Virus record (IMG/VR): IMGVR_UViG_3300031873_001030
Strand: one strand, 5' to 3'
From: a virus
Lineage: Duplodnaviria; Heunggongvirae; Uroviricota; Caudoviricetes
DNA: 18,824 nucleotides
Shown here piece after piece: positions 1 through 18,824 of the stretch. Made by a program: the position numbers and the translations under genes. The notes below the pieces were generated by a model that saw only the letters and a program-made list of their open reading frames with translations, was not told the DNA's origin and made no database searches. Positions within the stretch are counted from its first letter, which is position 1. Every line of letters starts with the position of its first letter.

Positions 1-1
1 T

Positions 2-3000
2 CAGACTTGGGTTACAGCGATAACAAATCCACTTTATTACAATATGACAAACAACACATTCAACTATATGGCAAATACATCACTTCAGACAATAGAAAAC
101 CAGACTGTGAATCAGTGGTTATATAATCAAACTACTCCAGCTATAGATTGGGTTACAGCTCAAAATTACACTACTAGTAATTTCACATGGAACCAGTCAT
201 TAGCTGATACACTCTATTATTGGATAACAAATCCAGATAACTTCATAAACACGACTTACAACTCTACGTATGATACTTATGCATATAATCAGACAACTCC
301 AGCTATAGATTACATACTTTCAAATCCTTATGGCTGGCTTAATACGAGTTATAACTCAACATATGACACTTATGCATATAACCAGACACAACCAGCAATA
401 GACTGGGTAACAGCACAAGGGTACATTAGTCAAGAATCAGAATATAATTCCAATCCTCTTGGTTACATAAATGATACTTCTTGGAACATAACTGCATGGA
501 ATGGTACATTAGCATTTAATAATACTCTTGCAACTTATGACACATGGGCTTATAACCAGACACAACCTGCAATAGACTGGGTAACAGCACAAGGATATTC
601 AGTTGGAAATTCTTCATGGAACCAATCATTAACTGATACTTTATACTACAGCATTTCAAATCCTTATGGTTTCTTGAATAGTTCTTACAACTCTACTTAT
701 AATACTTGGGCGTACAACCAAACTACACCAGCTATAGATTACATACTGTCAAATCCATATAATTGGATAAATACAACTGCAGTAGATACAGAACCATTAT
801 GGTCTGGTAATTATAGTTTGTATAATGACACATGGAGTTCTACTTACAATTCAACCTATGATACTTATGCTTACAACCAGACAATAGAAGCAATAGATTA
901 CATCCTATCTAACCCATATAACTGGGTGAATACTACTTATAATTCGACATATGACCAATGGGCATATAACCAGACTACTGCAGCTATAGATTACATTCTA
1001 TCAAATCCATATGGATGGCTTAACAGTACTTATAATACTACATATGATACTTGGGCATATAACCAGACCACATCAGCTATAGATTACATACTTAGTAATC
1101 CATACAACTGGGTAAATTCAACTTATAATTCAACATACAATACATGGGCATATAACCAGACAATAGCGGCTATCGATTACATCTTATCTAACCCATACAA
1201 TTGGGTCAATACAACTTACAACTCGACATATGATACTTGGGCATATAACCAGACACTTCCAGCAATAACATATGCTAATTCACAATTCATAAATATGACA
1301 AATACCTCATGGGCATTGACGCAAGCTGCAGCGAATGCTCAATTTATCAACATGTCCAATGCCACAATAAACCAGTGGCTATACAATCAGACCACACCAG
1401 CTATAACTTATGCCGATAGTTTATTGGTTACAACATTTTACAATGCAAGTGAGATTAAAGCAATAAGAGGAATTGCTATAGGAACTATAGGCAATATTAC
1501 AGCTTATGATTGGAAGAGTGTCAATGTGACTGAAGAGGCAGGAGCTACTGGAATAGATTTCAGGATTAATTTTACCAATGTCAATTCCTTGAATCAGATA
1601 GTACTAAGATATCATTCAACATCTGGAGAATCTCATACTTCAGATTTGCAGTTATGGGATTATACTGAAGATGGTTGGGAAAGTTATGCTAATTTTGGAA
1701 ATGTTGTAAATTTCCAAATATATACAATAGGTGTATTCGATAATTCGTCGCATATAGGAACTGATGGAAATGTGACAATGAGATTTGTATCTACTGCAAA
1801 TGGAAATACAGGGCATGTGCACTATTTTGATTGGACAACAATATCTAAAGGTATAGCCATACCTTCAAGTACAGAAGTGGACCCATGGTCAGTATATAGA
1901 GACGGTAGCACACCTCTGACTGATAATTGGAATGCTGGAAACTTTAATATCACAGCTAGTTGGTTCTTTGGAATGATGAATGGCACAAACATAACAGGAC
2001 TTACAAATTCAAGCTTGAAAAGTGATTTCACAATCTTATGGGGAAATGTCACTGATAAAGTCATATACAATGCAACTTATGAATATCAACAAAATGCTAC
2101 TTTGAATCAGTGGTTGTATAATCAAACTTTATCAGCTATCAATTATGCAAATAGTAAGTTTATAAACATGACCAATCAGACTTGGGTGACAGTTATAACA
2201 AATCCTTACTACATTAATATGACCAATCAAACTTGGGTTACAGTAATCACAAATCCTTACTACATAAATATGTCAAATGCTACAGTGAACCAATATCTTG
2301 TCAATCAGACCATACTTGCTTGGACATATGGGAATACATTCTATCAGAATATGACTAATCAAAGTTGGGTTACTGCAATCACAAATCCTTATTACATAAA
2401 CATGAGTAATGCAACAGTAAATCAATATTTATACAATCAGACTTTACCAGCGATAACATATGCTAATTCACAATTTGTGAATATGAGTAATGCTACATTA
2501 AACCAGTATCTTGTAAATCAAACTATACTTGCTTGGACATATGGGAATACATTCAGACAAAATATGACTAATCAGACATGGGTGACAGCTATAACAAATC
2601 CTTATTACATCAACATGACAAACACATCTTGGGCAGTGTTAGCTGGTAACTCTACATTGCAACTCACAACTAATAACACATGGGCAGTATTGGTTAGCAA
2701 TTCAACATTGCAACTTACAACAAATAACACTTGGGCTGTTCTAGCTAGTAATTCCACTTTACAGCTTACTACTAACACTACTTTACAGCAATGGTTATAT
2801 AATCAGACACTTCCAGCTATCACTTATGCAAATAGTCAGTTCATAAACATGACTAATACTTCTTGGGCATTGACACAAGCTGCAGCAAATACACAATTCT
2901 ACAACATGACCAATAACACTTTCAATTATATGATTAATCAGACATTGCAGACAACTTTAAATAATACTTGGGCAGTTTTAGCTGGTAACTCTACATTACA

Positions 3001-3556
3001 ATTAACTACTAATAATACATGGGCTGTATTAGCTGGTAACTCAACACTGCAATTAACTACAAATTCATCATGGGCAGTATTGGCTGGCAACTCTACATTA
3101 CAGTTAACTACAAATAATACTTGGGCAGTACTAGCAGGTAATTCTACATTGCAACTTATTACTAATACAACATTACAACAGTGGTTATACAATCAGACTA
3201 CACCAGCTATCAATTATGCCAATAGCAAGTTTATAAACATGACAAATACTTCTTGGGCAGTATTATCTAGTAACTCTACATTACAACTCACAACCAATAA
3301 TACATGGGCAGTATTAGCTGGCAACTCTACCTTACAACTTACAACAAATAACACTTGGGTGACAAAGATAACAAATCCTTATTACATAAATATGACAAAT
3401 AGTTCTATTGTTACAAATCTTGCTACTGTTACTGGTTGGATAAATAGTTCAACTATGAATGCAAGTACAAAAATTATCTCACCTACTCATTGCTTTACAG
3501 AATTATGTACCAAGAATATCACATTCAATGGAACAAATATTATAATTTATGGCTGA
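2..3556 (+). CDS. Large repeat-rich N/T/Y glycoprotein, probable tail fibre/filament (5'-truncated)
   Basis: The frame is open from base 2 (QTWVTAITNPLYYN precedes the ATG at 44), so the true start is upstream of the window. It has 31-, 27- and 17-aa repeats full of N-x-S/T sequons. A central non-repetitive beta-rich domain (~1430-2060) carries a fibre-like DGSTPLTDNWNAG motif. Cys-containing C-terminus (HCFTELC). Confidence 0.75.
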   Translation, partial: QTWVTAITNPLYYNMTNNTFNYMANTSLQTIENQTVNQWLYNQTTPAIDWVTAQNYTTSNFTWNQSLADTLYYWITNPDNFINTTYNSTYDTYAYNQTTPAIDYILSNPYGWLNTSYNSTYDTYAYNQTQPAIDWVTAQGYISQESEYNSNPLGYINDTSWNITAWNGTLAFNNTLATYDTWAYNQTQPAIDWVTAQGYSVGNSSWNQSLTDTLYYSISNPYGFLNSSYNSTYNTWAYNQTTPAIDYILSNPYNWINTTAVDTEPLWSGNYSLYNDTWSSTYNSTYDTYAYNQTIEAIDYILSNPYNWVNTTYNSTYDQWAYNQTTAAIDYILSNPYGWLNSTYNTTYDTWAYNQTTSAIDYILSNPYNWVNSTYNSTYNTWAYNQTIAAIDYILSNPYNWVNTTYNSTYDTWAYNQTLPAITYANSQFINMTNTSWALTQAAANAQFINMSNATINQWLYNQTTPAITYADSLLVTTFYNASEIKAIRGIAIGTIGNITAYDWKSVNVTEEAGATGIDFRINFTNVNSLNQIVLRYHSTSGESHTSDLQLWDYTEDGWESYANFGNVVNFQIYTIGVFDNSSHIGTDGNVTMRFVSTANGNTGHVHYFDWTTISKGIAIPSSTEVDPWSVYRDGSTPLTDNWNAGNFNITASWFFGMMNGTNITGLTNSSLKSDFTILWGNVTDKVIYNATYEYQQNATLNQWLYNQTLSAINYANSKFINMTNQTWVTVITNPYYINMTNQTWVTVITNPYYINMSNATVNQYLVNQTILAWTYGNTFYQNMTNQSWVTAITNPYYINMSNATVNQYLYNQTLPAITYANSQFVNMSNATLNQYLVNQTILAWTYGNTFRQNMTNQTWVTAITNPYYINMTNTSWAVLAGNSTLQLTTNNTWAVLVSNSTLQLTTNNTWAVLASNSTLQLTTNTTLQQWLYNQTLPAITYANSQFINMTNTSWALTQAAANTQFYNMTNNTFNYMINQTLQTTLNNTWAVLAGNSTLQLTTNNTWAVLAGNSTLQLTTNSSWAVLAGNSTLQLTTNNTWAVLAGNSTLQLITNTTLQQWLYNQTTPAINYANSKFINMTNTSWAVLSSNSTLQLTTNNTWAVLAGNSTLQLTTNNTWVTKITNPYYINMTNSSIVTNLATVTGWINSSTMNASTKIISPTHCFTELCTKNITFNGTNIIIYG
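838..1260 (+). repeat. Coding tandem repeat, 93 bp / 31 aa, about 5 copies (N-T-T-Y-N-S-T-Y-D-T-W-A-Y-N-Q-T-x-x-A-I-D-Y-I-L-S-N-P-Y-N-W-V)
   Basis: The AACCAG (NQ) anchor falls at 875, 968, 1061, 1154 and 1247, an exact 93-nt period. Further dispersed copies lie at ~245-400 and ~675-780. Confidence 0.95.
2165..3400 (+). repeat. Coding mosaic of 51-bp/17-aa repeats (NMTNQTWVTxITNPYYI; NNTWAVLAGNSTLQLTT) and 27-aa units (NMSNATVNQYLYNQTLPAITYANSQFV)
   Basis: A 51-nt period is seen at 2165/2216 and at 2960/3011/3062/3113/3164. Units are interleaved in varying order. Confidence 0.92.
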
Positions 3557-3566: not shown

Positions 3567-6500
3567 ATGATGATTAGGAAAGCGACAGTGAAATATTCTC
3601 TGATAGTCTCTGTATCTATCTTATTTCTAGGAGTGATGTTCTACTTTGTACAACCTGCATTTTCAGGAGATGAAGGACCTTTTACAATAAGTGAAAGAAC
3701 TGAGTATGGAATAATAGAAAATACAGTTTATCTTACTTTTACTGATACTAGCGATAAGGCTCAATACATAGACAATATAACATTCACATTCATGGATAGT
3801 GATAGGACAAGAACAGTAACGATAAAGGATTTTCTACTAAATCAAAGTGTTGTTATAGATGATTATGGATATGTCAATAAATCAATAGGTAAATACGAGA
3901 CAAGCAAAAATATTACAATAGGTGAAGGAGAAAATAGCACATGGTACATGAAATATTATGATAATGATGAAAATGAAATGTCATGTGTTTATGTATTGCT
4001 TGATAAGTCATGCATGGTAGGAATTTATAAAGTCATTGAAAATCATATTGAATATCAATTTTTAGATACTCCAAATACAAAAGAAAAAATAGTAACAAAT
4101 GGTCTGAAGATAGAACAGAAAGTCAGTGGAAGTGTGCCATTGACAAAATTAGGAAATGCAGAGATAAAAATTACAATGCCGCATATATTGTTTTTCAATC
4201 TTGATATTCCTTATAATGAAAATAAATACAACATAACAGCTTGTTCACAATATGGTTGTTCAGAATTAGACCCTACTTGGTGGAATTCAAGTTTCAAATA
4301 TAATGCAAGTATTTCATCAAATCAGATAGCTAATAGAAATGAATCAATAACATTTTTTATGAGCAATATATCTGGTTGGGCTAGGACACAAGTATTAAGT
4401 AATTGTAATGACATAAGGATAGTGAATGCTTCAAATAATGAACAATTGGATTACTTTGTAGATATTTGTAATTCAACAAATATTCGTGTAGGATTTTTGA
4501 ACAAGTATAATGTTTCTGGGGTTATAGCAAATGTTTATTGGAATTCTTCTACAGCAGAAGCACAGAATAAATCAATGAGAATGTTCTATGATGATTTCAA
4601 TGACAATTCAATAGATTTAAACAATTGGGCTTGGACAGTAGGTTGTGTCAATACAAATAGAGTAATTGAAGAGAATGGTGTTTTGAATGCTACATATGGT
4701 CTTGTTGCTCAGTGTGCGTTAATATGGAAAGGTAATACAACTGCATTGCAATATGAATCAGTTATGAATAAATTATGGTATAACTACGACTACGATTATA
4801 ATTATGCTGGTGGTGCTGGAATGTTCATAAATGCATCTTTATATAATGGTCATTACCTTGCACGAGCATATCAAGATGCAACAAAAATAGAAATTGAACA
4901 TGATAACCAAGATAGAGGTGATTTTAAAATTGCGGCAAATATGCAACCCAACACTTGGTTTTGGATGTATATGAAAACAAATGCTACTGCCTATATAGGC
5001 AGCAAGTGGAATGTAACTAATGAAAACTCAACCCAAAATAAAACTGTATGGGCAACTGATAATATCCCAGGTAAAGAATATCGTGGGTTAGCGATACCAA
5101 GTGACGCTACTGTCGGTAGATATGTCCTTTTTGATGACTTTCAAGTATGGGCTCAAACTTACACTCCAAGTTGGTATAGTACAGCATCAACAATAACATT
5201 AGGTGCTGCAACAATGGGAGAAGTAGCACCAACGTATACAGATTTTGGTGCAACAATTACAAATAATACAGGAATAAGTATAGGTCAATCTATAACTTAT
5301 TATGCAAAATGGAATGATGATACAACTTTAGACAAGTGCATGAATTCTTCAAAAATAAATACTACTACAGGAATTGGAAATTGGTGGAATTCTAGCTTTA
5401 TTGCTAGAGCTAATATATCTTCAAATCAGGTAGCTAATAGAAATGAATCTATAACATTTTACATGAGTAATATATCTGGTTGGAGTAGAAATCAAGTATT
5501 ATCAAATTGTAATGATATAAGAGTTTTGAATAGCAGTGGTAATGAACAATTGGATTACTTTATAGACATATGTAACTCAACAGATATTAGAATTGGATTT
5601 CTAAATAAATATAATGTTTCAGGAACAATAGCTACGATATACTGGAATTATTCTACAGCAGAAGCTCAGAATAAAAGTATGAGATTATTCTATGATGATT
5701 TTAATGATAATTCAGTAAATTGGAATAATTGGAATTTTACTCAAGGATGTACTACTCCTGGTACAACAATAACAGAACAAAATGGAGTATTAAATCATAC
5801 TACTAGCACAGGTGGTCAATGTTCTCTTGTATGGTATAGTAATGCAAGTATACTTCAATATGAAACGGTAATGGCTAAAGTTAAATATAGTTCTACTTCA
5901 AATTATCTTTATCTTGGTATAGGAGCATTTCAAAATACTACAACATATAATGGTATTCATTTAGCTCAAGCGTATACTCATGTTGAATCAATAGAAATAG
6001 AGCATGATAATGCAGATAGAGGAGATGGATATGTTAATGCAAGTCTTACAAATAATGTTTGGTTTTGGTTTATGCAATCAAATGATGCTTCAAAAACTAG
6101 AGGTTATACATGGAAAGCTGATACTGAAAATTCTATTCAAAATATAAAGTGTCTTAGTTCTGATGTTGGATATAAATATCGTTTTGGTATAGAGTGGACT
6201 GGTAATCCTGCAAATTCTTATGTTATTTATGATGATTTTCAAGTATGGGCAGCAGGTTATGACCCAACATTTTATGCAACAAGTTCAACACTCACAATTA
6301 CAACAAAAGAAGATTATGGTGGTACGTCATCATCATGGGTCAATGGGACTTGGGCATCAGCAGGAACAGGTAACTGGACTAACTACACAGTAAAATTTCC
6401 AGCAGAAGTAGGAAGCAACTATACAGTAAAAATATACTGCAATGACACTAGTGGAAATATGAATGTAACAGGAACTTTATTCTGGTGGAATGCAATTTCA

Positions 6501-7949
6501 CCAATAGTAACAATATTTTCACCTACAAATTCTACTTATGTGAAAGGAGATATCTGGTCAAATATAACATTGGACAAAGCAGGTTCTTGGTGTGGTGCAA
6601 GTTTTGATGGTGGTTCTAATGTTACTATGACAAATTCAACTGGAAATTGGAACTATAAAAATACAACTGTAGATATAGGAACTCATAATGTAAGATTCTG
6701 GTGTAATGATACAAACAACAATTGGAATGCATCTGCTAACAATATAGTCTATTATACAATTGACAATGCAGTTCCAACATATACAAACTTTGGAAGCAGT
6801 ATTGTAAATAACACAGCAGTAAATACACTTATTTCAGACAATTATTATAATCTCTCGATAAATGATACATTTTCTGGAAATTCAATCGATACTACTCAAT
6901 GGAAAGTATATAACACGACGCTTTTCACTTCTGAAACCGGCAGGTTGTATCAATATGGAACCGTGACTTTAATAGCAGATTCAACTTATCTCACTTCAAT
7001 AACAGGAAACTATTCAGATTTTACAATGAGTGTGACATATAACCAGATTTCAGGTTCTGGTACTGTTTTTTGGTATGACACTCGATCAGGATTTTTATTC
7101 AGGGCTAACAATTATAGTTATACAGGACAACATATTTTTGCAGGAAGTGGTTATGAAGTATCAGTTGCAAGAAGAGATGTCAACCACGCTGGCGCATCTA
7201 TAATAAGCATACTAAGATATAACAACAATGGACTATATACAGAATTGAATTATTCTGCAATAACAATAACTCAAGCAACAAATTATACTCTCAATGTCAC
7301 AGTTCTTGGAAACAACATAACAGTTTATTGGAATGGTAATTTCATAGCAAATGCTACTGACAATACTTATAATGCTGGTAACATATCAATTATGGAAGTT
7401 CTAGGTGATGGGGGAGGAGTGGGAACAATAAACAATTCGTGGAGCAATTTTTTATTATATAGTCAATCTGGTCAAGTAAACACGCTAACTTATTATGCAC
7501 AATGGTCTGACAATATTCAATTAGACAAATGTATGAATTCAAGTAAAATAAATACTTCTGGAACTTGGACTAATGGAACTTGGGCATCAGTTAGTACAGG
7601 TAACTGGACTAATTATACGATAGCATTTCCAGTAGAACAAGGTAGTAACTTGACAGTAAAAATCTATTGCAATGATACATCTGGCAATATGAATGTAACA
7701 GGAACTTTATTCTGGTGGAATGTTACAAATATAGTGACAGATTCATGCACATATCCAGGTAGTGGGACTTGGTCAATAAATTGTGCTGACAATTGTGTGA
7801 TAACTGCGAATACAAACATGAATGGAAATGCAATCACATTTTATGGAACTGGAAACGCATATTTGAATGCAAACATAGTGAACATATCTCAAAGGACATT
7901 TGTTCCTAATTGTCCAGTGGTGATAGGAACTGGAAAGTTGTTTGGATAA
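3567..7949 (+). CDS. 1460-aa secreted/anchored multidomain adhesin-like glycoprotein (two DUF2341-like + lectin-like modules, Ig-like domains, C-terminal Cys motif); probable receptor-binding protein
   Basis: N-terminal hydrophobic segment. A duplicated WWNSS...NCNDIR...LDYF.DIC...FYDDFND module resembles DUF2341 followed by a ConA-like fold. An Ig-like P-x-V-T-I-F-S-P-T-N-S-T-Y...WCNDT unit follows. C-terminal DSCTY...WSINCADNC. Preceded by GAGGGA. Confidence 0.75.
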   Translation: MMIRKATVKYSLIVSVSILFLGVMFYFVQPAFSGDEGPFTISERTEYGIIENTVYLTFTDTSDKAQYIDNITFTFMDSDRTRTVTIKDFLLNQSVVIDDYGYVNKSIGKYETSKNITIGEGENSTWYMKYYDNDENEMSCVYVLLDKSCMVGIYKVIENHIEYQFLDTPNTKEKIVTNGLKIEQKVSGSVPLTKLGNAEIKITMPHILFFNLDIPYNENKYNITACSQYGCSELDPTWWNSSFKYNASISSNQIANRNESITFFMSNISGWARTQVLSNCNDIRIVNASNNEQLDYFVDICNSTNIRVGFLNKYNVSGVIANVYWNSSTAEAQNKSMRMFYDDFNDNSIDLNNWAWTVGCVNTNRVIEENGVLNATYGLVAQCALIWKGNTTALQYESVMNKLWYNYDYDYNYAGGAGMFINASLYNGHYLARAYQDATKIEIEHDNQDRGDFKIAANMQPNTWFWMYMKTNATAYIGSKWNVTNENSTQNKTVWATDNIPGKEYRGLAIPSDATVGRYVLFDDFQVWAQTYTPSWYSTASTITLGAATMGEVAPTYTDFGATITNNTGISIGQSITYYAKWNDDTTLDKCMNSSKINTTTGIGNWWNSSFIARANISSNQVANRNESITFYMSNISGWSRNQVLSNCNDIRVLNSSGNEQLDYFIDICNSTDIRIGFLNKYNVSGTIATIYWNYSTAEAQNKSMRLFYDDFNDNSVNWNNWNFTQGCTTPGTTITEQNGVLNHTTSTGGQCSLVWYSNASILQYETVMAKVKYSSTSNYLYLGIGAFQNTTTYNGIHLAQAYTHVESIEIEHDNADRGDGYVNASLTNNVWFWFMQSNDASKTRGYTWKADTENSIQNIKCLSSDVGYKYRFGIEWTGNPANSYVIYDDFQVWAAGYDPTFYATSSTLTITTKEDYGGTSSSWVNGTWASAGTGNWTNYTVKFPAEVGSNYTVKIYCNDTSGNMNVTGTLFWWNAISPIVTIFSPTNSTYVKGDIWSNITLDKAGSWCGASFDGGSNVTMTNSTGNWNYKNTTVDIGTHNVRFWCNDTNNNWNASANNIVYYTIDNAVPTYTNFGSSIVNNTAVNTLISDNYYNLSINDTFSGNSIDTTQWKVYNTTLFTSETGRLYQYGTVTLIADSTYLTSITGNYSDFTMSVTYNQISGSGTVFWYDTRSGFLFRANNYSYTGQHIFAGSGYEVSVARRDVNHAGASIISILRYNNNGLYTELNYSAITITQATNYTLNVTVLGNNITVYWNGNFIANATDNTYNAGNISIMEVLGDGGGVGTINNSWSNFLLYSQSGQVNTLTYYAQWSDNIQLDKCMNSSKINTSGTWTNGTWASVSTGNWTNYTIAFPVEQGSNLTVKIYCNDTSGNMNVTGTLFWWNVTNIVTDSCTYPGSGTWSINCADNCVITANTNMNGNAITFYGTGNAYLNANIVNISQRTFVPNCPVVIGTGKLFG
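4278..6300 (+). repeat. Internal duplication of a ~310-aa DUF2341-like/lectin module (copy 1 ~4278-5200, copy 2 ~5382-6300)
   Basis: The WWNSS starts at 4278 and 5382 (offset 1104 nt). N-terminal halves are near-identical (SSNQ.ANRNESITF.MSNISGW), while the lectin-like halves are more divergent. Confidence 0.9.
6456..7722 (+). repeat. 37-bp exact direct repeat (6456-6492 and 7686-7722) within duplicated Ig-like segments
   Basis: aatatgaatgtaacaggaactttattctggtggaatg is identical at both sites, offset 1230 nt. Confidence 0.92.
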
Positions 7950-8017
7950 TGTTCTATGGAGTCTGATGTATATGTTGAGACGGTAGCTTTCTTACCTATA
8001 CTTCCTAAACTATTCAT

Positions 8018-10310: not shown

Positions 10311-10329
10311 AATAAATCTTCCAGAATAT

Positions 10330-10784: not shown

Positions 10785-10811
10785 CAGATAAGTATGCAGA
10801 AGAGATGATTA

Positions 10812-11168: not shown

Positions 11169-11347
11169 AAACGAAAAAATTACAAAGAGCGCATTGTCCA
11201 AATTGTGTATTGAGTTATGACTTGAGCAAGTTTGCATCAAAAAAAATTGAGAAAAAGAAATTTGGCAAGCAATTGTATTGGCGCTGGCTGATATTTTCCA
11301 TATGGATTACATCAATTTTGTTAATAATTTTTGGATTATATTGTTGA
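11165..11347 (+). CDS. 60-aa protein with a CPNC knuckle and C-terminal TM helix (track start 11105 probably too early)
   Basis: ATGA overlap at 11165. Basic middle region, hydrophobic C-terminus. Confidence 0.6.
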   Translation: MKTKKLQRAHCPNCVLSYDLSKFASKKIEKKKFGKQLYWRWLIFSIWITSILLIIFGLYC

Positions 11348-11357
11348 AAGTATATTT
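11346..11357 (+). promoter_or_regulatory. BRE/TATA-like element (GAAAGTATATTT), probable leaderless start for 11382
   Basis: TATATT lies ~27 nt upstream of the ATG, and there is no SD. Confidence 0.45.
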
Positions 11358-11381
11358 TATGACAAATACTTAGCTTTATAA

Positions 11382-11936
11382 ATGTCTGGAGTCTCATATA
11401 TATTTATGTCAGCTGACGGTTCTATATCTAATACACCTCAAAGTGGAGTTGGAGGAAATATTTCTCCTCAACCTCCAACTCCTATCTATTCTCAACCGCC
11501 AAGAGAATGGGAAAATTATGAGGGTTCAAGGACTCAGGGAATAATGAAAACTGAGTTTGACCAGAAGGTATATCTTGTCGATGTTGACAAGAGGCTTGAT
11601 TTTACAAATCTGATTTCACTCGTGACAAAGGAATTGGATACTTCTTTTATAAATGACCAGGACTTGAAGATTTTCTATCAGATAAATTTTGAGAATGTCT
11701 TGGAATGGGCAGCTATGGGACTTATTGATTTGGCAAAAATCAGGCTTGCAAACTTATTTTCCCAACTCAAATTAGAAAAATCAGTAGGTGGATTTGAAAG
11801 GATTCTGCAAGGAGCCACACTTACTGGAACAGTCGTCGCACCTCTTCCTTCAAAGAAGAGCTTATGGCCAGTCGAATTCATGAAGAAACAGGAAGGTCCA
11901 AGGACTATAGCACAAAGAATCGGGGAAATAGGATAA
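11382..11936 (+). CDS. Hypothetical protein with a Pro/Ser/Gly-rich N-terminus and a helical domain (LKLEKSVGGFERILQ)
   Basis: 184-aa ORF in the operon orientation. Confidence 0.75.
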   Translation: MSGVSYIFMSADGSISNTPQSGVGGNISPQPPTPIYSQPPREWENYEGSRTQGIMKTEFDQKVYLVDVDKRLDFTNLISLVTKELDTSFINDQDLKIFYQINFENVLEWAAMGLIDLAKIRLANLFSQLKLEKSVGGFERILQGATLTGTVVAPLPSKKSLWPVEFMKKQEGPRTIAQRIGEIG

Positions 11937-11955
11937 TAAAAAAGGAGTGATAAAT

Positions 11956-12075
11956 ATGAAAAAGAAAGAATTCAGTAAAGAAAAAAAGGAACCAATTACA
12001 TGGCATGATTTCATGGGACAGGTACATGATGATGTTATCAGGCCAGAAAGGATGAGACCAGAGGTATTGGATTGA
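11956..12075 (+). CDS. 39-aa charged microprotein (MKKKEFSKEKKEPITWHDFMGQVHDDVIRPERMRPEVLD)
   Basis: SD GGAGTGA at 11944-11950. The TGA overlaps the TTG of the next gene. Confidence 0.65.
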   Translation: MKKKEFSKEKKEPITWHDFMGQVHDDVIRPERMRPEVLD

Positions 12076-12299
12076 AAATAATACTAAAGTCCTTTCCTGA
12101 AAATTGGGAAAAGGAAAAATCAATGGTAAAGCCATGCACAGTAAGAAGATTGGATGGCAGGGATACCATAGAGATAATCAATACTGAAACTGGTGAGAAG
12201 ATAGAGAAACACATAACAGATATTTCAGTATGGAAAAATGATATAATAATTTCATTCTCCATGTGGCCAGATGGATTTGTAAAGAGAGGTAAAAAATAA
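12072..12299 (+). CDS. Short ASCH/PUA-like domain protein
   Basis: LKSFPENWEKEKSMVKPCTVRRLD resembles the ASCH-family LK..P..F......K...E/T.R..D motif. TTG start. Confidence 0.5.
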   Translation: MKIILKSFPENWEKEKSMVKPCTVRRLDGRDTIEIINTETGEKIEKHITDISVWKNDIIISFSMWPDGFVKRGKK

Positions 12300-13298
12300 A
12301 TGGCAACTGACATGCTGCCGATGTATTTCATGTCGGCAATGGGTGTATTGGTTCTTGGTATTTTTTTCCTTCTTCTAAGAAAAAAGAAGAAAAAGGAAAA
12401 ATTAAAGCTTACTAGTGCATTGCCAAAACCTATCGAACAACCTGTATCTGTATGGACACCACCAATTGGTTTTGGCATGGGCATGACACAACAGCAAGTT
12501 ATAGCAGAACCAGTAGCTTTAAGTGACTTGGGAAAGACCAGCATATTCAACAGAGTAAAAATATCGATGGACGCGCTGATATTTGCATGTGTATTTGTAG
12601 GTTTCCTTTCTGTATTGATTTTTTATCTGAGTAAAGCGGCTTTTATCGCAGCACTTATAAGCGGCATGATGTTCATACCTATTGGTGTTATAATCGGTGC
12701 GATGTTTGCTTCTAATTTTAGAGTCAAAATAATGAGAAGGTTGACAAGAAAGAATTATGGAATGGTAAAGTTCATACATTCAAACAAGCTGATAAAACCA
12801 GTCATCGCTAATCTTGACAGTGATATAGTAAGATTTGCAGATGGTGTATACATACTTGACAAGCAGACAATAAAGAGAGAAGGTACAGAAACTCCATCTT
12901 CAGATATCATACAGGAAAATGTGATAAAATTTGAGGAAGGCATTCCTACAATCTATTATGACTTGACTGACATAATGCCAGTAGATTTTACAAGCAGCGT
13001 GAAAAAAATAGAAGGAGAACCTGACAGGTTCAGGCTGCCATCTCAAGTATCAGCTACTTTGAACAAGGAGATAGCAGTTGAGAAAGCCAAGATAATGAAG
13101 GCATTCAGGACAAGACAATCCATGTTCATGCTGATAATAATAGCATTGATAGTTATCAATGTCTATTTCAGTTACAGCACATATACAAACAACAAGAACA
13201 TGATGATAAAAATGGATAATGTAAACAGTGGTATGAATGCATTAAGAGGCTTGATACCATCGCAGCCTGTTGCAACTGCCACAACAGGAGGAGGATAA
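12300..13298 (+). CDS. 332-aa multi-pass membrane protein with a central soluble domain; putative virion assembly/egress factor
   Basis: TM1, poly-K, TM pair, soluble domain (EGIPTIYYDL..IMPVDF), C-terminal TM and a short coil. SD GAGGT upstream. Confidence 0.75.
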   Translation: MATDMLPMYFMSAMGVLVLGIFFLLLRKKKKKEKLKLTSALPKPIEQPVSVWTPPIGFGMGMTQQQVIAEPVALSDLGKTSIFNRVKISMDALIFACVFVGFLSVLIFYLSKAAFIAALISGMMFIPIGVIIGAMFASNFRVKIMRRLTRKNYGMVKFIHSNKLIKPVIANLDSDIVRFADGVYILDKQTIKREGTETPSSDIIQENVIKFEEGIPTIYYDLTDIMPVDFTSSVKKIEGEPDRFRLPSQVSATLNKEIAVEKAKIMKAFRTRQSMFMLIIIALIVINVYFSYSTYTNNKNMMIKMDNVNSGMNALRGLIPSQPVATATTGGG

Positions 13299-13300
13299 TA

Positions 13301-13567
13301 ATGTTGACAAATATACTGATGACAAATGATGGAATGAAACATGGGATAAAATGGGGATTGATAATTGTAGCTGTAATATTAGGAATGACATCATTGGCAA
13401 AGATTATGTCATTTGTGATGGACAACGAATTGATAAAAATAATTTTCAATTCCATCTTTGCAGGAGTAGGGATAACGATAGGAACTTACTTTGCAAATAA
13501 GATGCTTATCGACAGGATGGAAAAGTTAAAGCTGATAGGCAAGAAAAAGGAGGCAACAAAATCATGA
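13301..13567 (+). CDS. Small two-TM membrane protein with a basic C-terminal tail
   Basis: Two hydrophobic helices. GGAGGA SD upstream. Confidence 0.75.
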   Translation: MLTNILMTNDGMKHGIKWGLIIVAVILGMTSLAKIMSFVMDNELIKIIFNSIFAGVGITIGTYFANKMLIDRMEKLKLIGKKKEATKS

Positions 13568-13692
13568 GTGAAGCAGTGGTATATAATGACGACTTATCAA
13601 TGGATAAGGTCATACAAATCATAGGAAATGAGATGGTCATTTTCAATGACAATCTGGAACTTGAAAAAATAATACAATTGAGGGATGACTGA
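13564..13692 (+). CDS. 42-aa acidic microprotein with an internal duplication (MSEAVVYNDDLSMDKVIQIIGNEMVIFNDNLELEKIIQLRDD)
   Basis: Fits exactly between ATGA and TGATG overlaps. AAGGAGG SD upstream. Confidence 0.7.
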   Translation: MSEAVVYNDDLSMDKVIQIIGNEMVIFNDNLELEKIIQLRDD

Positions 13693-14156
13693 TGGCAGAT
13701 GACCAAGTAGTCAGAATGTACAATGTTCTGCCAGCAATAGAACAGACTAAGATATTGATAATAGAAAGGTTGAAAATATTGTTCGATGGCATAAATATTT
13801 TGTTCCAAAACAAGCTGATGTCAAAGAAAGATGAAGAGATTATAGCGCTTGTAAAAGCTACTTCAATATCCATATATCTTATGCTGAAACCTAAGATAGT
13901 AGAATATGTTGAACAGAGGATTAGAATAAGACCAGATGCTCTCCAATCAGACATGATGATAAAGGAATTGACAAAAATGATTACCAAGATAGAAAGTTCT
14001 ATAGCAAATCCTAGCGCAATGACAATAGAAGATGCATTGTACTATTCGGATGTCATAAATATATTCTGTCATGATTATGGAATAACAAGAATAACATACT
14101 TCTCAGGCACTGTCAGTGTGCCAGATGAGAAGTCAATATACAACGTGAAAGTATGA
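13692..14156 (+). CDS. 154-aa alpha-helical hypothetical protein (C-terminal YGITRI motif)
   Basis: ORF track, translationally coupled on both sides. Confidence 0.75.
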   Translation: MADDQVVRMYNVLPAIEQTKILIIERLKILFDGINILFQNKLMSKKDEEIIALVKATSISIYLMLKPKIVEYVEQRIRIRPDALQSDMMIKELTKMITKIESSIANPSAMTIEDALYYSDVINIFCHDYGITRITYFSGTVSVPDEKSIYNVKV

Positions 14157-14788
14157 AAAAAGAAATAATCCCATCATTAATGATGGGATTTGCAATGGTA
14201 TTGGCACTAGCATATGTAGGAATAGCTAGTGCTGACACTTGCGTACCTTTGGATGACATAAACAACCTTACAACAAATACATCAGTAAATCTGACATCTA
14301 TATTCATAAGCTTATGTGACAAGATTGCCTCACTGAACACCAGCTACAATAATCTGAATGCAAACTATAGCAATCTAAGCACAAACTACAATGGATTGAA
14401 TATAAAATACATTAGCTTGCTAAATAACATAACAAGCAACAGCACATCAGCAATCATGCTTGGAAATGTCTCATACATATATTACAACATGAATGTGACT
14501 GACCATTACAACAAATTGTCAGTCTACAATTCATCGATATCAAATGCATTATACAGCATGAACTCTGCAGTTGCAAATCTTCCAAATGTCTATCTGAAAC
14601 TTTCAGACTATACTGCATATGCTGCCAGTACAGCAGTGGCTATCGCTAATACAAATATAAAGATAGATTCTGTAAATGCAAGCATAATAGGCATAGATGA
14701 CAGGATTCCAAAAGATTACAACATTTACTTCATGATGGGATTTGTTGTATTGCTCTTAGTAATTGCAGCATTAGTATTCATTAAATAA
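14153..14788 (+). CDS. Membrane-anchored coiled-coil glycoprotein (signal peptide, N-rich heptads, C-terminal TM)
   Basis: Signal ending ASA, then LNTSYNNLNANYSNLSTNYNGLN heptads with many sequons and a C-terminal hydrophobic anchor. Confidence 0.75.
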   Translation: MKKEIIPSLMMGFAMVLALAYVGIASADTCVPLDDINNLTTNTSVNLTSIFISLCDKIASLNTSYNNLNANYSNLSTNYNGLNIKYISLLNNITSNSTSAIMLGNVSYIYYNMNVTDHYNKLSVYNSSISNALYSMNSAVANLPNVYLKLSDYTAYAASTAVAIANTNIKIDSVNASIIGIDDRIPKDYNIYFMMGFVVLLLVIAALVFIK

Positions 14789-14813
14789 CCTTCCTATACG
14801 GTAAGGTGTTAGG

Positions 14814-15185
14814 ATGGTAGAGAAATTCAGAGACGAAGTAAGTGGTGAAGAAATGGTCAGGATAAAGTGTAATATATGCAAGGAAAGCAAGAACTTGAAA
14901 TCTGAGACTTATCAGAAAATGCTCAAGCGTTTCAGCTTCACAAGGTCTTTCCTTTTTGGTATGACCCATGGTATAGAAGCTGTCCTTACCAACAAGCCTA
15001 TACAGGCGACATTATCCAAAGAAGAAATGGAAAGGGCATTTCAAAATGTCTATGTATGCAAGGAATGTAAAAACAACAAGGAAGAGACACTGAAGATAAC
15101 AGAATCCATATCCAGAATTTTGAATCTTCCAATCATACCTAAGGACATTGATAAAGAACGTGGTAATAATGAAAGTAAAAAATAA
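14814..15185 (+). CDS. Zinc-binding protein (CNIC...CKEC)
   Basis: Two CxxC pairs about 60 aa apart. Confidence 0.7.
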   Translation: MVEKFRDEVSGEEMVRIKCNICKESKNLKSETYQKMLKRFSFTRSFLFGMTHGIEAVLTNKPIQATLSKEEMERAFQNVYVCKECKNNKEETLKITESISRILNLPIIPKDIDKERGNNESKK

Positions 15186-15220
15186 GATAGAACTTATAAA
15201 AAAGGCATGGGTGGAACTAG

Positions 15221-15640
15221 ATGCCGATTGACCAACTAGCAATGAACGCAACTGGCACAACTGTACTAAATACTTTGGTGATAGGAGGTCCATTGTTGAT
15301 ATGCATAGCTGTAATAGTCTTTATTGCAATCTTCATATCGATACCATTCATCTATAGAAGAGTGATAAGGATATTCGGCTGGCTAGGAATGACATTCGTA
15401 TATTTCCTGAAAGGACTTGCTGGATTGCTTTCTTTAACTTTGATATATATTGCACTGAAAGGAGGAGCTGAAAATGCCACAAGCATCTTGACAGTCTTGA
15501 AATGGATAGGCATAGCTATCATCTGTTATGCAGCAATAGCAAGCGCAGGCTACATGCTTACATATGCCTGGAAAAAGTTATGGAGACTTTCTGGAAATGA
15601 CAAGTTCCAGAAACGACCAAAGGGAGAAAGAAAGAAATGA
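15221..15640 (+). CDS. Three-TM membrane protein
   Basis: Three long hydrophobic segments and a basic tail. Confidence 0.75.
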   Translation: MPIDQLAMNATGTTVLNTLVIGGPLLICIAVIVFIAIFISIPFIYRRVIRIFGWLGMTFVYFLKGLAGLLSLTLIYIALKGGAENATSILTVLKWIGIAIICYAAIASAGYMLTYAWKKLWRLSGNDKFQKRPKGERKK

Positions 15641-15789
15641 TTATAATACCGCAACCATGGGCAGACATACTATCTTATGGAGTAATAGTGCTTGCAGTAG
15701 GAATAATGGCATGGTTCATTTGGCAGCAACCAATCTGCTTCAGGACAGAAGAAAAGGAAAAGGAAAAGGGGAGAAGTGATAAGAAATGA
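15637..15789 (+). CDS. 50-aa single-TM microprotein (MIIIPQPWADILSYGVIVLAVGIMAWFIWQQPICFRTEEKEKEKGRSDKK)
   Basis: ATGA overlaps at both ends. It replaces the shadow ORF 15564..15779. Confidence 0.7.
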   Translation: MIIIPQPWADILSYGVIVLAVGIMAWFIWQQPICFRTEEKEKEKGRSDKK

Positions 15790-16316
15790 GCAAAACACTA
15801 TTCATAATAGCATTGCTTGTAGCGATTAGCATCATACCAATAGGAGCTATCTTCCAGAACACATGGCTTGACATAGGACTTGGAGCATTCGCAATGCTTC
15901 TTTTTATAATCCACATGAAGACAAAGAGCAATTCAGAATACGAATCAAGGGAGAAAGAACCGACTTATGAACAGGAAGGCAATGTCATAGAACAACCAGA
16001 AGAGCCAGAAGTGCTAGGCATAAGGAAAAGGACAAAAGCAAAAGTAAGAAAGAAAGAAGAAGAAAGTGGAGGAAGCGGATTTCCTTTCATAGGTACTTTC
16101 ATAGGAGTAGCTGTAGCTATCATAGTAGGTGTGGGTGTTGTAATACCAGTCATAAACAACCAGGTGACAAACATGACAAATTCAGTGGAATTAGGCAATT
16201 CTACTAGTATAACTTCATCAGTAAGTACTTTACTAAGTATTGTTCCAATCTTGATGGTATTGGCTATAATAATATCTGTAGTAGGAATGGTTGGTAGGTT
16301 TGGAAGTGGTGTATAA
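15786..16316 (+). CDS. Fusion protein: N-terminal TM hairpin + charged linker + C-terminal capsid-like hairpin (aa 99-176)
   Basis: The C-terminal VVIPVINNQV...TLLSIVPILMVLAII closely parallels the 8018 capsid protein. The linker is E/P-rich, then K/R-rich. Confidence 0.78.
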   Translation: MSKTLFIIALLVAISIIPIGAIFQNTWLDIGLGAFAMLLFIIHMKTKSNSEYESREKEPTYEQEGNVIEQPEEPEVLGIRKRTKAKVRKKEEESGGSGFPFIGTFIGVAVAIIVGVGVVIPVINNQVTNMTNSVELGNSTSITSSVSTLLSIVPILMVLAIIISVVGMVGRFGSGV

Positions 16317-16492
16317 TGCGTTATTGGATTTACAAAGGTACAAGGAACGGTATGGAAGTGTTCAGATGCAACGGATGCGGTTTTGAAAAATGCATAATGC
16401 ATGCAGCAAGCGGAAGAAGAAGACCCAAGAAAGACGGTTCACCAACTGTATTTCATTGTCCAATGTGCAAAGAAGAAATAAACTATAGGTAA
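16316..16492 (+). CDS. 58-aa zinc-ribbon protein (CNGC...CPMC)
   Basis: Manual translation: MRYWIYKGTRNGMEVFRCNGCGFEKCIMHAASGRRRPKKDGSPTVFHCPMCKEEINYR. TAATG overlap. Confidence 0.75.
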   Translation: MRYWIYKGTRNGMEVFRCNGCGFEKCIMHAASGRRRPKKDGSPTVFHCPMCKEEINYR

Positions 16493-16495
16493 TCC

Positions 16496-16864
16496 ATGTT
16501 ACAAAAGTTCGATTGGAGAGGCTTGCCATATGTTCTCCCTCTGATTTTCTTAATTGCAATATCAATACCTGGGGTGATATTTGTTGGAGGAATATTCCAT
16601 GAATGGCTTCATAGTCAGGATTTTGAGACTGAATCCGTATGTATCGACTATACTAACAACTCTTTCATGTACATTACCAGTGCCTACATATACCTTGGCA
16701 ATGAGACCAACAATCACACAAATTTTGACGAAAGAAGCCTTTCCGTATCCAGACATTTCGAGGTATATGCCCTTGAAGGAATAGTAATCGGGATATTATT
16801 TACGCTAATCCTACTATCTTCATTGCTATTGACCAGATTCATAGTGACAAAACATGTGATATGA
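16496..16864 (+). CDS. Small membrane protein with a HExxH motif; putative membrane zinc metalloprotease (M50-like/zincin, minimal)
   Basis: HEWLH (16598-16612) at the end of TM1. HFEVYALE precedes TM2. Confidence 0.55.
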   Translation: MLQKFDWRGLPYVLPLIFLIAISIPGVIFVGGIFHEWLHSQDFETESVCIDYTNNSFMYITSAYIYLGNETNNHTNFDERSLSVSRHFEVYALEGIVIGILFTLILLSSLLLTRFIVTKHVI

Positions 16865-17568
16865 TGCTAAAGACAAACAAGTTGAAACTTGAAAGAATCC
16901 CAATCTGGAAAATAAAAACATCCAACTTCAATATACGAGCCAAGATAGAACCAGACCAAAACCTAAAAAGAAATCTTTATGAAAAAGGACAAATAAACCC
17001 TCTGATAACTCTGAATGACTATACACTGATTTCAGGGTACAGAAGATATGCCGAATTGAAAAGGTTACGTGCAAGAAAAGTGTGGATACTGAAAGTATCA
17101 TATTTGAAAAAGTCAAACGTATTGGAATATCAATTATCTGAAATATTGCATTCAAAAGATATCAATCCTATGGACAAAGGGCGTGCATTCAAGAGACTTA
17201 TGGATTTGAAGAAATTATCAGTACAAAAGCTTTCAAAAATCCTGAACATCCCAAAACACACATTAGAATGGCATCTGAAACTGTTAAAACTTCCAAAAGC
17301 CATCAAGTCAGACATATCTGAAGGAAGGCTCAAGCCATATGGGATAAGGATGCATAGACTATATGGAAAGAAGAGGATACGGACAAGGAGTGACTTCATA
17401 CTATCTTCAAATGATATTCTCTTCGATTCATTCCTGAAAAGGATAGCTGCAATGCGGACCTTGATACCGCAAATCGAATATACAGAAAACCAAAGCAAAG
17501 AGGCAAAAATACTTATTAAGGAACTGCTAACTATCATTGAAAAGAACGGAGGTGCAAATCATGTTTAG
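16861..17568 (+). CDS. parB: ParB/Spo0J-like protein (ParB-N domain + HTH)
   Basis: N-I-R, GQINPL (box I), LISGYRR (GxxR box II), KDINPMD and the HTH-like LSVQKLSKILNIPKHTLEWHLKLL. Confidence 0.82.
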   Translation: MMLKTNKLKLERIPIWKIKTSNFNIRAKIEPDQNLKRNLYEKGQINPLITLNDYTLISGYRRYAELKRLRARKVWILKVSYLKKSNVLEYQLSEILHSKDINPMDKGRAFKRLMDLKKLSVQKLSKILNIPKHTLEWHLKLLKLPKAIKSDISEGRLKPYGIRMHRLYGKKRIRTRSDFILSSNDILFDSFLKRIAAMRTLIPQIEYTENQSKEAKILIKELLTIIEKNGGANHV

Positions 17569-17680
17569 CCAATTAGCCAGAAAGGGAACAATCTCATTCT
17601 CACTGAAGAAGATTGTAGTCCTGATAATATTATTTGCAATAGCTATAATCGCATATCTGATAATTACAAAGAAGAAATAA
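17561..17680 (+). CDS. 39-aa single-TM microprotein (MFSQLARKGTISFSLKKIVVLIILFAIAIIAYLIITKKK)
   Basis: SD GGAGGTG at 17548-17554. One hydrophobic helix flanked by lysines. Confidence 0.7.
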   Translation: MFSQLARKGTISFSLKKIVVLIILFAIAIIAYLIITKKK

Positions 17681-17702
17681 GATATCAAAAACAAGGTATT
17701 AC

Positions 17703-18824
17703 ATGACAAGAAGCGATTTCCTAAAAATACTAGAGCCGTCTGAAGAGAAAGAAGAAAAACCAGAGAAACAACCAGAGGAAACTATCATCCAAAAACCCGA
17801 AGAAGATGTTAATGAGGAAAAAAAAGATGAAATAGAGGAACAACCATCTCCAAGTCCAATTCCTGAAGTAACCATAGAGCTAATAGAAGACACAAGCAAA
17901 ATAGAAAAGTACAAACCTATAATTGAAGACATGGTGATAAAAAAAAGCGACTTGAAACAAGTCGATGAAGTTACCTTAGAAGACAAACTGATAAGCAAGA
18001 AACAACCAGACTGGAAACTAGCCGCCGAAGCTGCAAAAACTGTGCATGTAGAGCTTTCTGAAGACGAACTTGACAGACTATCCATGTCTCTTTCCGAGCA
18101 AACCAAGGAAGATTTGATGAACACTATACGCAGCCTAAACATAACCGACGTCCGCATTGAACTAGACTCGCGTGCAATCAAAATAATGACCAACATAGTC
18201 AACAAATGCAAAGAACTAAACGTCGACTGGTTCATAGCCATAGTGGGAGGTGAAGGCGTAGGCAAGTCAACCCTAGCCTTAAACTTATTCGCCCTCGTCT
18301 GCAAAATGAATAATGTAAATCCAATAGAGATACTTTTAAGAACATTGATATATGATGAAGACGAACTGTTAAGATTCATATCCTCCGTAGACCCGAGAGA
18401 GAAGTTTCTTGCATTAGACCTAGATGAAGGAGCCAACGTCCTGTTCAATCGTGAAAGCATGCAAACCAAGCGAAGCTACATACTAAAATTCTTCAACGTC
18501 ATGAGATTCCTAAATGCAATAGTCTTCATACCAACCCCAAACATCAAATTCCTTGATAAGAATGTAAAAGCCCACAGAATAAAGTCCATATTCTATATAC
18601 CAAGCAGAGGAACATATTGGTTTTACGATAAAGAACAAGTAGACCGAATGCTAGCCAACGAGACAAGCAAGAAATGGTATTGGGTCGAACCCAAAGCAGT
18701 AGGGTCATTCTCCGTAAACAAGGAACTAGAATCAATCGTAAACCTAATCAAGGAAAACTATATACGAATGTTCAGCGAAAAAGTGAAAACCTTCCTCCAA
18801 TCCGAAGAAAAAAAGAAATACAAA
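17703..18824 (+). CDS. P-loop ATPase with an acidic N-terminal extension (3'-truncated); putative packaging/assembly ATPase
   Basis: The frame is open from ATG 17703 to the window end (374 codons). Walker A AIVGGEGVGKST (GGEGVGKST at 18246-18272) and Walker B FLALDLDEG (18405-18431), followed by IPTPNIKFLD. Confidence 0.9.
   Translation, partial: MTRSDFLKILEPSEEKEEKPEKQPEETIIQKPEEDVNEEKKDEIEEQPSPSPIPEVTIELIEDTSKIEKYKPIIEDMVIKKSDLKQVDEVTLEDKLISKKQPDWKLAAEAAKTVHVELSEDELDRLSMSLSEQTKEDLMNTIRSLNITDVRIELDSRAIKIMTNIVNKCKELNVDWFIAIVGGEGVGKSTLALNLFALVCKMNNVNPIEILLRTLIYDEDELLRFISSVDPREKFLALDLDEGANVLFNRESMQTKRSYILKFFNVMRFLNAIVFIPTPNIKFLDKNVKAHRIKSIFYIPSRGTYWFYDKEQVDRMLANETSKKWYWVEPKAVGSFSVNKELESIVNLIKENYIRMFSEKVKTFLQSEEKKKYK

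Follow-up and report, generated by a model that had tools for sequence, protein, structure and literature searches.

The stretch of DNA analysed here (18,824 nt; hereafter the window, to which all positions refer) has a GC content of 31–38% and holds 26 plausible genes, every one on the + strand, in line with the many small co-oriented genes described in the first-pass annotation. The features discussed below are listed in order, with identities given for homologues in relatives (L numbers):

2–3556, + strand: giant repeat fibre protein, 1184 aa within the window, open at its 5′ end (start upstream)
3567–7949, + strand: giant fibre/adhesin with an N-terminal signal/TM segment and lectin-type domains, 1460 aa
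8018–8251, + strand: major capsid protein (MCP), an alpha-helical hairpin of the SSV1 VP1 / His1 VP21 type, 77 aa
9244–9726, + strand: membrane protein; of its four hydrophobic segments, the first is probably a signal peptide
9972–10310, + strand: 46-aa basic protein fused to a capsid-type hairpin, 112 aa
10380–10784, + strand: S-adenosylmethionine decarboxylase (SpeD), an auxiliary metabolic gene
11382–11936, + strand: soluble core protein p184, 47–74% identical in L005, L003, L008 and L012
12300–13298, + strand: core membrane protein p332, 39–58% identical in L005, L003, L008 and L012
13692–14156, + strand: soluble core protein p154, 46–70% identical in L005, L003, L008, L009 and L012
14153–14788, + strand: predicted type-I-like membrane glycoprotein p211, with a signal/TM segment, 12 sequons and a C-terminal TM segment
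14814–15185, + strand: zinc-ribbon-like p123 with two CxxC pairs (four Cys), 33–65% identical in L005, L003 and L008
15786–16316, + strand: hairpin of the capsid type preceded by a two-TM N-terminal module and a charged linker, 176 aa (p176)
16861–17568, + strand: ParB-like protein, 235 aa
17703–18824, + strand: P-loop ATPase of the SSV1 B251 type with an acidic low-complexity N-terminus, about five codons being lost at the window/contig end

True homology links the 77-aa protein to the capsid hairpin of SSV1 VP1 and His1 VP21, as the first-pass annotation had suspected when it called this hairpin SSV1-VP1-like. The profile of its family matched SSV19 VP1 in the PDB (7xdi_A) at E 2.6e-8, with the next match at E 0.15; hhalign against His1 VP21 gave 92.6%, and at ~1e-9 the MCP HMM detects His1 VP21 as well as the precursor of SSV1 VP1. 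Pfam His1_capsid (PF25665) was hit by the single protein at E 3.6e-5, just below the curated cut-off, and by 17 of 20 family members, and the protein also matches phrog_11172 (‘virion structural protein’). The annotation had staked its reading on this protein modelling as an SSV-type hairpin; the AF2 model (pLDDT 89) is such a hairpin, with helices at residues 7–43 and 50–76, and its top Foldseek match is again 7xdi_A (probability 0.99, TM 0.67/0.74, rmsd 1.9 Å). A small (about 70–90 aa) MCP with two hydrophobic helices and homology to VP1/VP21—a trait of spindle viruses—is hence present.

Hairpins of the same type form the C-termini of two longer proteins. That of the 112-aa protein is 30% identical to the MCP (MCP HMM, E 8e-24), and the N-terminal 46 aa of this protein correspond to a 46-aa gene standing by itself in L005, L001 and L002, whose product ends exactly at ...KG. 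The hairpin of p176 is 50% identical to the MCP (MCP HMM, E 9e-24); the protein further matches phrog_11172 (E 7.5e-8) and, weakly, SSV1 VP3 and His1 VP21 in hhalign. As judged by alignment, the junction in these capsid-protein fusions is a conserved KG|F, which stands opposite the SSV1 ‘KG|E’ (alignment A4), and mature SSV1 VP1 begins with Glu (PMC5748691). The extended hairpin copies would be pro-proteins cut at this junction, the aligned counterpart of the site where SSV1 VP1 is matured.

The gene at 17703 had been annotated as a Walker-motif ATPase, and both its Walker A (GGEGVGKST) and Walker B (LDEG) motifs are invariant across 19 relatives. Profile comparisons establish it as a homologue of SSV1 B251 (hhalign, 92% probability, E 6e-7, 184 columns; HMM, E 3e-6). 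While phmmer against the PDB returned nothing, the structural model (pLDDT 86) matched the Zot N-domain (2r2a, E 2e-5) and then AAA+ proteins in the PDB, as well as, in BFVD, ATV ORF286 (E 1.3e-6) and a protein of NSV, the Zot and ATV ORF286 matches having TM-scores of ~0.45–0.57. Pfam Zot was weakly matched by 17 of 19 family members, below its cut-offs. Since PHROG labels the protein ‘DnaA-like replication initiation’, a role in replication may apply. With both hallmark genes, hairpin and ATPase, present and passing homology tests, the spindle-virus interpretation is supported.

Upstream of the capsid gene lie what the first-pass annotation had termed two giant glycoproteins. Their size and an excess of N-x-S/T sequons stand: 113 against ~44 expected from composition in the 1184-aa protein, which is N/T-rich with only 1.4% K+R, and 75 against ~36 in the 1460-aa protein, which has a TM segment at aa 6–35 and 23 Cys. 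On this basis, both giants may well be glycosylated. The DUF2341/Ig-type adhesin assignment held in part. A ConA-like lectin domain is clear in the 1460-aa protein (PF06439, aa ~1102–1269, E 2e-7, above cut-off), DUF2341 stayed sub-threshold on a fragment of it (aa ~279–345; E 0.01, 16.7 bits vs a cut-off of 23.4), and no Ig-type family was detected. Atlas look-up of this protein was uninformative (scores <0.9). DUF2341/LamG giants occupy the same position in relatives, yet the giants of the window are unrelated to these fibres in sequence, and BLASTP of the 1460-aa protein against a relative’s DUF2341 giant found no similarity.

Both fibre genes vary between strains, in a comparison that did not score stretches without contig cover in other runs as absent. 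The first (2–3556) contains tandem 93-nt and 51-nt units, and an in-frame deletion of a 153-nt repeat separates strains; in the second, 6489–7749 is replaced in frame in other strains. Nearby, the membrane protein at 9244–9726 is 35% identical over 168 aa to the C-terminus of a 2423-aa LamG protein of L005 (E 2.5e-24) and also resembles the giants of L001 and L003 at their ends, matching it to the C-terminal anchor module of the relatives’ giant fibres.

By protein identity, a core of p184, p332, p154, p123 and the ATPase is kept among relatives. In L005, L003, L008 and L012, p184 always lies upstream of the p332 homologue, whose window version has TM segments at ~4–29, 85–143 and 268–297. No lead emerged for p184 from Pfam, PHROG, NCBIfam or Atlas (Atlas scores <0.9), nor a family for p154 from Pfam, NCBIfam or Atlas (scores <0.9), and p211 had no homologue in the relatives examined. 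The ASCH domain of the first-pass annotation was not recovered: the ORF at 12072–12299 has no such match (Pfam, E up to 5; NCBIfam, 0.01), and none was found among the other Pfam-scanned ORFs of the window (E up to 0.01), a set that left out several small ORFs.

The window is part of a much larger genome. The contig carrying its SpeD gene measures 92,011 bp, and relatives are sediment-metagenome contigs of 31 to 106 kb (agreeing with the earlier expectation of a genome larger than those of typical fuselloviruses), the 106-kb one being CAYGRS010000001.1 of assembly GCA_964352345.1. These contigs recur across sediment samples with a core conserved at ~98%, and MCP and ATPase share one contig in both L003 and L012. 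At their ends, the relatives’ contigs run into GT-rich repeats without an inverted copy, and a search of the 31-kb relative’s opposite end found no terminal inverted repeat. A contig break lies ~100 nt beyond the ATPase gene, where a GT-rich repeat array or a true DNA end may follow. Pfam and PHROG scans found no polymerase in the window, a bacterial promoter scan stayed at background level, a 14-bp palindrome was no more frequent in the window than chance predicts, and no RNA holders of the stretch were listed. An archaeal Hjc gene adjoins the ATPase gene in L005.

Taken together, we read the window as the structural arm of a large dsDNA archaeal virus belonging to the spindle-shaped group with an SSV1/His1-type capsid protein, a reading to which we assign a probability of roughly 85%. 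According to a recent preprint (bioRxiv 10.1101/2025.02.15.638363), an MCP together with an AAA+ ATPase is the signature module of spindle-shaped viruses. We infer the spindle shape from these two genes. Counting against the reading, only 2 of the 13 window proteins tested by hhalign match SSV1 or His1 proteins, and the 11 others gave no match to either virus. To our knowledge, spindle-shaped viruses are archaea-specific.

Fuselloviridae (SSV1, SSV19) share with the window virus the homologous MCP hairpin (7xdi_A), the B251 ATPase and the possession of MCP paralogues (VP1/VP3). Their VP1 precursor is cut just ahead of the first helix, they carry a terminal fibre protein, and sequons occur in their capsid proteins. 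Their circular genomes span 14–24 kb vs the 92-kb contig here, whereas the window comes from mesophilic sediment, has 33% GC and is without an SSV-type integrase; MCP and ATPase alone match SSV1 (13 window vs 19 SSV1 proteins, hhalign). Contig size and gene content place the virus outside Fuselloviridae sensu stricto. Halspiviridae (His1) and Thaspiviridae (NSV1–3) resemble it in their VP21-type MCP and non-thermophilic setting, and the NSV protein among the ATPase’s fold matches is thaspiviral; their genomes, however, are linear with inverted terminal repeats, 14–29 kb long and encode a protein-primed PolB, which the window lacks, and His1 ORF16 matches the ATPase weakly (39%, hhalign). The Itzamnaviridae and Tepeuviridae of ANME-1 (PMC9894754) are similar in sediment origin and large genome size: their genomes split into structural and enzymatic arms, related genomes are very unequal in size, and itzamnaviruses have two MCP genes. 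Compared by description only, they reach a maximum of 72.6 kb vs 92 kb here (PMC9894754). Wyrdviridae, nanohaloarchaeal DNSVs and Huangdivirus are metagenomic spindle viruses likewise defined by MCP paralogues and an AAA+ ATPase; their genomes have ~20 kb, and the descriptions consulted mention neither giant fibres nor MCP fusions. Spindle viruses go unmentioned in the VIPR preprint. As for the ATPase domain, its best structural matches are Zot / pI, the filamentous-phage assembly ATPase, and ATV ORF286, but pI has a TM/periplasmic domain that the window ATPase is without. Our verdict is a spindle-shaped archaeal virus that is new at the level of the family, with Itzamnaviridae and Tepeuviridae compared by description only, and whose genome is of apparent record size. 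The lineage is new and previously undescribed, but it belongs to a virus type already known and does not represent a new kind of system.

Could the hallmark genes sit in something other than a virus? Small satellites and plasmids may bear the same MCP and ATPase pair, and pSSVx, SRCEs and pL6 plasmids bear the spindle-virus ATPase and/or MCP, as stated in bioRxiv 10.1101/2025.02.15.638363. A large plasmid-like or satellite element might therefore have captured a spindle-virus morphogenetic module and depend on a helper virus or vesicles, and ParB is a typical plasmid gene. The known satellites described in that preprint, however, are 2.7–9 kb and without fibres, whereas the window has a full set of MCP with its paralogues, giant fibres, membrane proteins and the ATPase, which relatives retain as one block. 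Such an element is therefore improbable. Even less credit goes to the idea that a low-GC (DPANN-type) archaeal chromosome contains the window as a provirus, whether integrated or decayed, or as an island of surface-protein genes. One 3-kb relative contig was binned into an Aenigmatarchaeota MAG (a thin host lead), and small-celled archaea and CPR bacteria often have DUF2341/LamG giants. Yet integrase, att site, tRNA and housekeeping genes were all absent from the window (Pfam and tRNA scans) and from ~60 kb of flanks of three relatives; ordinary chromosomal DNA, which the first-pass annotation had named as the finding that would overturn it, is not what these flanks hold, consisting instead of tiny ORFans and four N6/N4 DNA methyltransferases. 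The single ATPase sequence, and then profiles of ATPase and MCP, retrieved zero relatives from IMG/VR and from the 185,579 GTDB species genomes, and the 31–106-kb contigs recur across samples as described above.

A cellular origin of the capsid-like protein itself is largely refuted, and we give it hardly any weight. The 77-aa protein would then be a type IV pre-pilin bearing a class III signal (KKG|F), with the giants as pilus-tip adhesins; its N-terminus does look like a pilin leader, and the MCP family profile weakly matches geopilin and a fimbrial protein (E 0.15–1.8). However, the protein has a second hydrophobic helix and no globular domain, its sole significant PDB match and best fold match is SSV19 VP1, and the ATPase is of the B251 type rather than the PilB/FlaI type.

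For the virus favoured here, a working model can be outlined. The hairpins would build a lemon-shaped shell as in SSV19, and cutting at KG|F would release the 46-aa basic protein and the two-TM module. The sequon-rich giants could form terminal fibres, glycosylated and host-binding, that diversify through domain swaps, with the 9244–9726 membrane protein anchoring them in the virion, and the ATPase, with p332, p184 and p154, may power either assembly or the loading of DNA at the host membrane. More speculatively—and we would sooner bet against this proposal than for it—the virus would combine the largest genome of the SSV1/His1 lineage (92 kb; at least 106 kb in a relative) with a shell of at least three hairpin paralogues, all matured at one KG|F junction, possibly by a host prepilin-type peptidase, and releasing their fused cargo, a DNA-binding basic protein of 46 aa and a two-TM module. 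The largest spindle viruses that we know of have ~76 kb. If true, cargo release at KG|F would reveal the logic by which spindle-virus capsid proteins mature, which has long been sought.

These data bear on the open question of how a 70-aa hairpin capsid scales to large genomes: a sediment lineage with genomes of 31 to >100 kb on the same hairpin and ATPase widens the size range, and in its naturally fused MCPs the junction falls at the site where SSV1 VP1 is matured. The cassettes that strains exchange in their giant lectin-type fibres offer a way to study how viruses of uncultured archaea recognise their hosts. Since IMG/VR and INPHARED yielded no relatives (for INPHARED, by tblastn of MCP, p176 and ATPase), the conserved core genes can be used as recovery markers.

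Two accessory genes proposed by the first-pass annotation were both confirmed. SpeD (PF02675, E 1e-29; TIGR03330, 105.8 bits vs a cut-off of 75.65) might contribute to polyamine supply, and a homologue (P0055, 54% identical) probably shares one 6,121-bp contig with an ATPase relative (P0034). The ParB-like protein (HTH_ParB, E 2e-7; ParB_N, E 0.004; TIGR00180, E 5e-13; PHROG ParB families) could act in genome partition or condensation, and 16973–17225 of its gene is replaced in other strains.

All 26 plausible genes of the window lie on the + strand, with a GC content of 31–38%; the ORFs on the minus strand are shadows of these genes, and no tRNA gene was found in the window. The features on which the analysis turns are as follows:

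2–3556, + strand: giant ORF1, open at its 5′ end
3567–7949, + strand: giant ORF2
8018–8251, + strand: gene for a 77-aa capsid protein (MCP), followed by about 450 nt holding micro-ORFs only
16861–17568, + strand: ParB gene, the last in a run of small genes
17703–18824, + strand: ATPase gene, reaching the window end

The micro-ORFs behind the capsid gene (8252–8698) possess strong GGAGG-type ribosome sites, an example being a basic 34-aa ORF at 8548–8652. Eighteen nt at the capsid gene start are duplicated exactly (8016–8033 and 8661–8678), and the copy opens a 7-codon ORF. Further downstream, 16496–16864 encodes a small protein with two transmembrane segments and an HEWLH motif, proposed in the first-pass annotation as a candidate maturation protease; it had no family match and no homologue among the relatives fetched.

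That same annotation had staked its reading on the 8018 protein modeling as an SSV-type helical hairpin, and this is what we found. Its AlphaFold model is a hairpin (helices 7–43 and 50–76; pLDDT 89.3), whose best Foldseek match in the PDB is SSV19 VP1 (7xdi_A; probability 0.99, TM 0.67/0.74, 29% identity, rmsd 1.9 Å across 65 columns); owing to the small size of the protein, the E-value of this match is weak (0.15). In the AlphaFold DB, the top cluster was a DUF1035 protein, which we take to represent the fusellovirus coat family. At the sequence level, the protein matched phrog_11172 ('virion structural protein') and, at E 3.6e-5, the Pfam family His1_capsid (24.1 bits; cut-off 27). We retrieved 22 metagenomic relatives (57–94% identity) and aligned 17 of them with the MCP and its two hairpin paralogues in the window; 17 of these 20 sequences matched His1_capsid, the best at E 4e-7. 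Searched against all PDB sequences, the profile of this alignment returned 7xdi_A as the sole significant chain (E 2.6e-8, 67/75 positions), followed by pilins at E 0.15 or worse. Likewise, an HMM of the family run over 639 ORFs recovered the SSV1 VP1 precursor ORF (E 1e-9) and His1 VP21 (E 2e-9), the latter also matched by hhalign (score 92.6%).

The two paralogues form the C-termini of longer products, of 176 aa (15786–16316; 50% identical to the MCP) and 112 aa (9972–10310; 30%). In L012, a locus from a more distant relative, a 78-aa MCP adjoins a 159-aa copy (6814–7293) with an insertion of ~80 aa in the inter-helix loop, which would let this capsid protein present an additional domain. 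Across the family alignment, K/S-G directly precedes the first helix in every copy (KG|F or SG|F), and the junction lies opposite 'KG|E' in the precursor of SSV1 VP1. Mature SSV1 VP1 starts at the conserved Glu once an unknown protease has removed the N-terminal extension (PMC5748691). Moreover, three relatives encode the counterpart of residues 1–46 of the 112-aa protein as a separate 46-aa gene, which in one of them (L005) ends right after ...KG. The fusion point thus coincides with the putative cleavage point, which supports, without proving, processing of the extended copies at KG|F.

The second gene linking the window to spindle-shaped viruses is the ATPase, which lacks only about five C-terminal residues at the window end. 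The Walker A and Walker B motifs do not vary among 19 relatives, and the profile aligned with SSV1 B251 over 184 columns (92% probability, E 6e-7), well beyond the P-loop; the corresponding HMM scored B251 at E 3e-6. Pfam gave weak matches only (Zot in 17 of 19 members, and various AAA families). In the PDB, the fold matches of the model (pLDDT 86) were led by the Zot N-terminal domain, then classical AAA+ proteins; those in BFVD were ATV ORF286 (E 1.3e-6), Zot proteins of inoviruses, a protein from a Nitrosopumilus spindle-shaped virus, and viral proteins without a name. An exhaustive profile search yielded 15 cluster representatives below 1e-30, 520 below 1e-10, and 1,859 below 1e-3. Assembly and replication are both candidate roles. 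In one ATPase relative (P0030, 454 aa), Hint and homing-endonuclease-associated Hint domains (E 7.6e-9) mark an intein within the ATPase.

Together with the ATPase, p184 (11382–11936), the membrane protein p332 (12300–13298), p154 (13692–14156), and p123 (14814–15185; two CxxC pairs) are kept at 33–78% identity in the related loci L005, L003, L008, and L012, except that p123 had no match in L012. These core genes are tightly packed in L008 and L003, and a single contig carries both MCP and ATPase in L003 and in L012. Core proteins other than the ATPase matched nothing in SSV1, His1, or the family libraries. Past the structural arm, L012 switches strand and continues with dozens of tiny ORFans. 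In a 31-kb relative, the region immediately upstream of the structural arm (L014:3140–9713, equal to L015:5586–12159) carries, on the opposite strand, four genes in a row for N6/N4 DNA methyltransferases together with an HTH gene; this relative also has further ORFans. On the 106,338-bp NCBI contig of L005, an archaeal-type Hjc gene follows the ATPase.

Of the giant proteins, ORF1 is rich in N and T, its 113 sequons exceed the roughly 44 expected, and it contains tandem units of 31 and 17 aa. ORF2 starts with a signal/TM segment and holds 75 sequons, 23 Cys, a PF06439 concanavalin-like domain (about aa 1102–1269, E 2e-7), and a sub-threshold DUF2341 signal (E 0.01). The corresponding position in relatives is occupied by giants of 1,077 to >3,460 aa, of which several contain DUF2341 or Laminin_G_3. 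BLASTP could not align the giants of relatives with ORF2; the 160-aa membrane protein at 9244–9726 is the counterpart of their C-terminal anchor. When contigs of other sediment runs were aligned to the window, two runs matched 7928–18824 at about 98% identity. Within the fibre genes of these two, 17 nt stand in place of 6489–7749 (in frame, net 1,242 nt, lectin domain gone), 153 nt of repeats are absent, and further segments are skipped, again in frame. This pattern fits host-recognition proteins diversifying by cassette exchange.

The spindle viruses described for ANME-1 from metagenomes are large as well, up to 72.6 kb, have two MCPs, and keep their structural and enzymatic arms separate (PMC9894754). 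MCP paralogues are also known from wyrdviruses, DNSVs, and Huangdivirus. By its genes, the virus in the window is therefore a new lineage, probably of family rank, within a known kind, and differs from known spindle viruses in genome size, fibre number and size, and MCP fusions. Its DNA turns up repeatedly in sediments: in addition to the probable source run, twelve runs contain at least 0.22 of the window's sampled words. The lineage was not found in IMG/VR, INPHARED, or GTDB species genomes. A 3-kb relative contig binned as Aenigmatarchaeota offers a weak lead to the host.

Among the accessory genes named earlier, SpeD was identified by NCBIfam as a class 1B AdoMet decarboxylase and ParB was likewise supported, whereas the ASCH domain was not. 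SpeD, recorded for the window on a 92,011-bp contig, may also be present in relatives: for a homologue with 54% identity (P0055) and for an ATPase relative (P0034), the longest contig listed has the same length, 6,121 bp, and the two are probably one contig. Other sediment strains carry a different sequence in place of 16973–17225, within the ParB gene, and a 36-nt insertion at 11103/11104, the surrounding core still being about 98% identical.

Five assemblies made independently, from the window strain and from two relatives, stop about 0–600 nt past the ATPase gene (window 18824; L003:18665–18752; L005:11994–12093; L006:4410–4509). Contigs from two other sediment runs (X2, X3) extend only about 100 nt beyond the window end, and L005 and L006 terminate at the identical base. 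Such coincident ends suggest a repeat array, or a physical end of the DNA, shortly beyond this point. The two relatives, whose ATPases are each only 59–78% identical to that of the window, share a conserved TACGTA palindrome pair, spaced 11–12 nt apart and 17–33 nt from the contig ends; searches of the window and of L001–L015 found it at no other site:

L003:18703–18719, TACGTA palindrome pair
L005:12059–12076, TACGTA palindrome pair
L006:4475–4492, TACGTA palindrome pair

At its opposite end (L015:1–130), the contig of the 31-kb relative begins inside a GT-rich tandem array of about 29-nt units, followed by GGGGTT repeats. The array is similar to VIPR-type GGY/NN guide arrays and may cause the assembly breaks.
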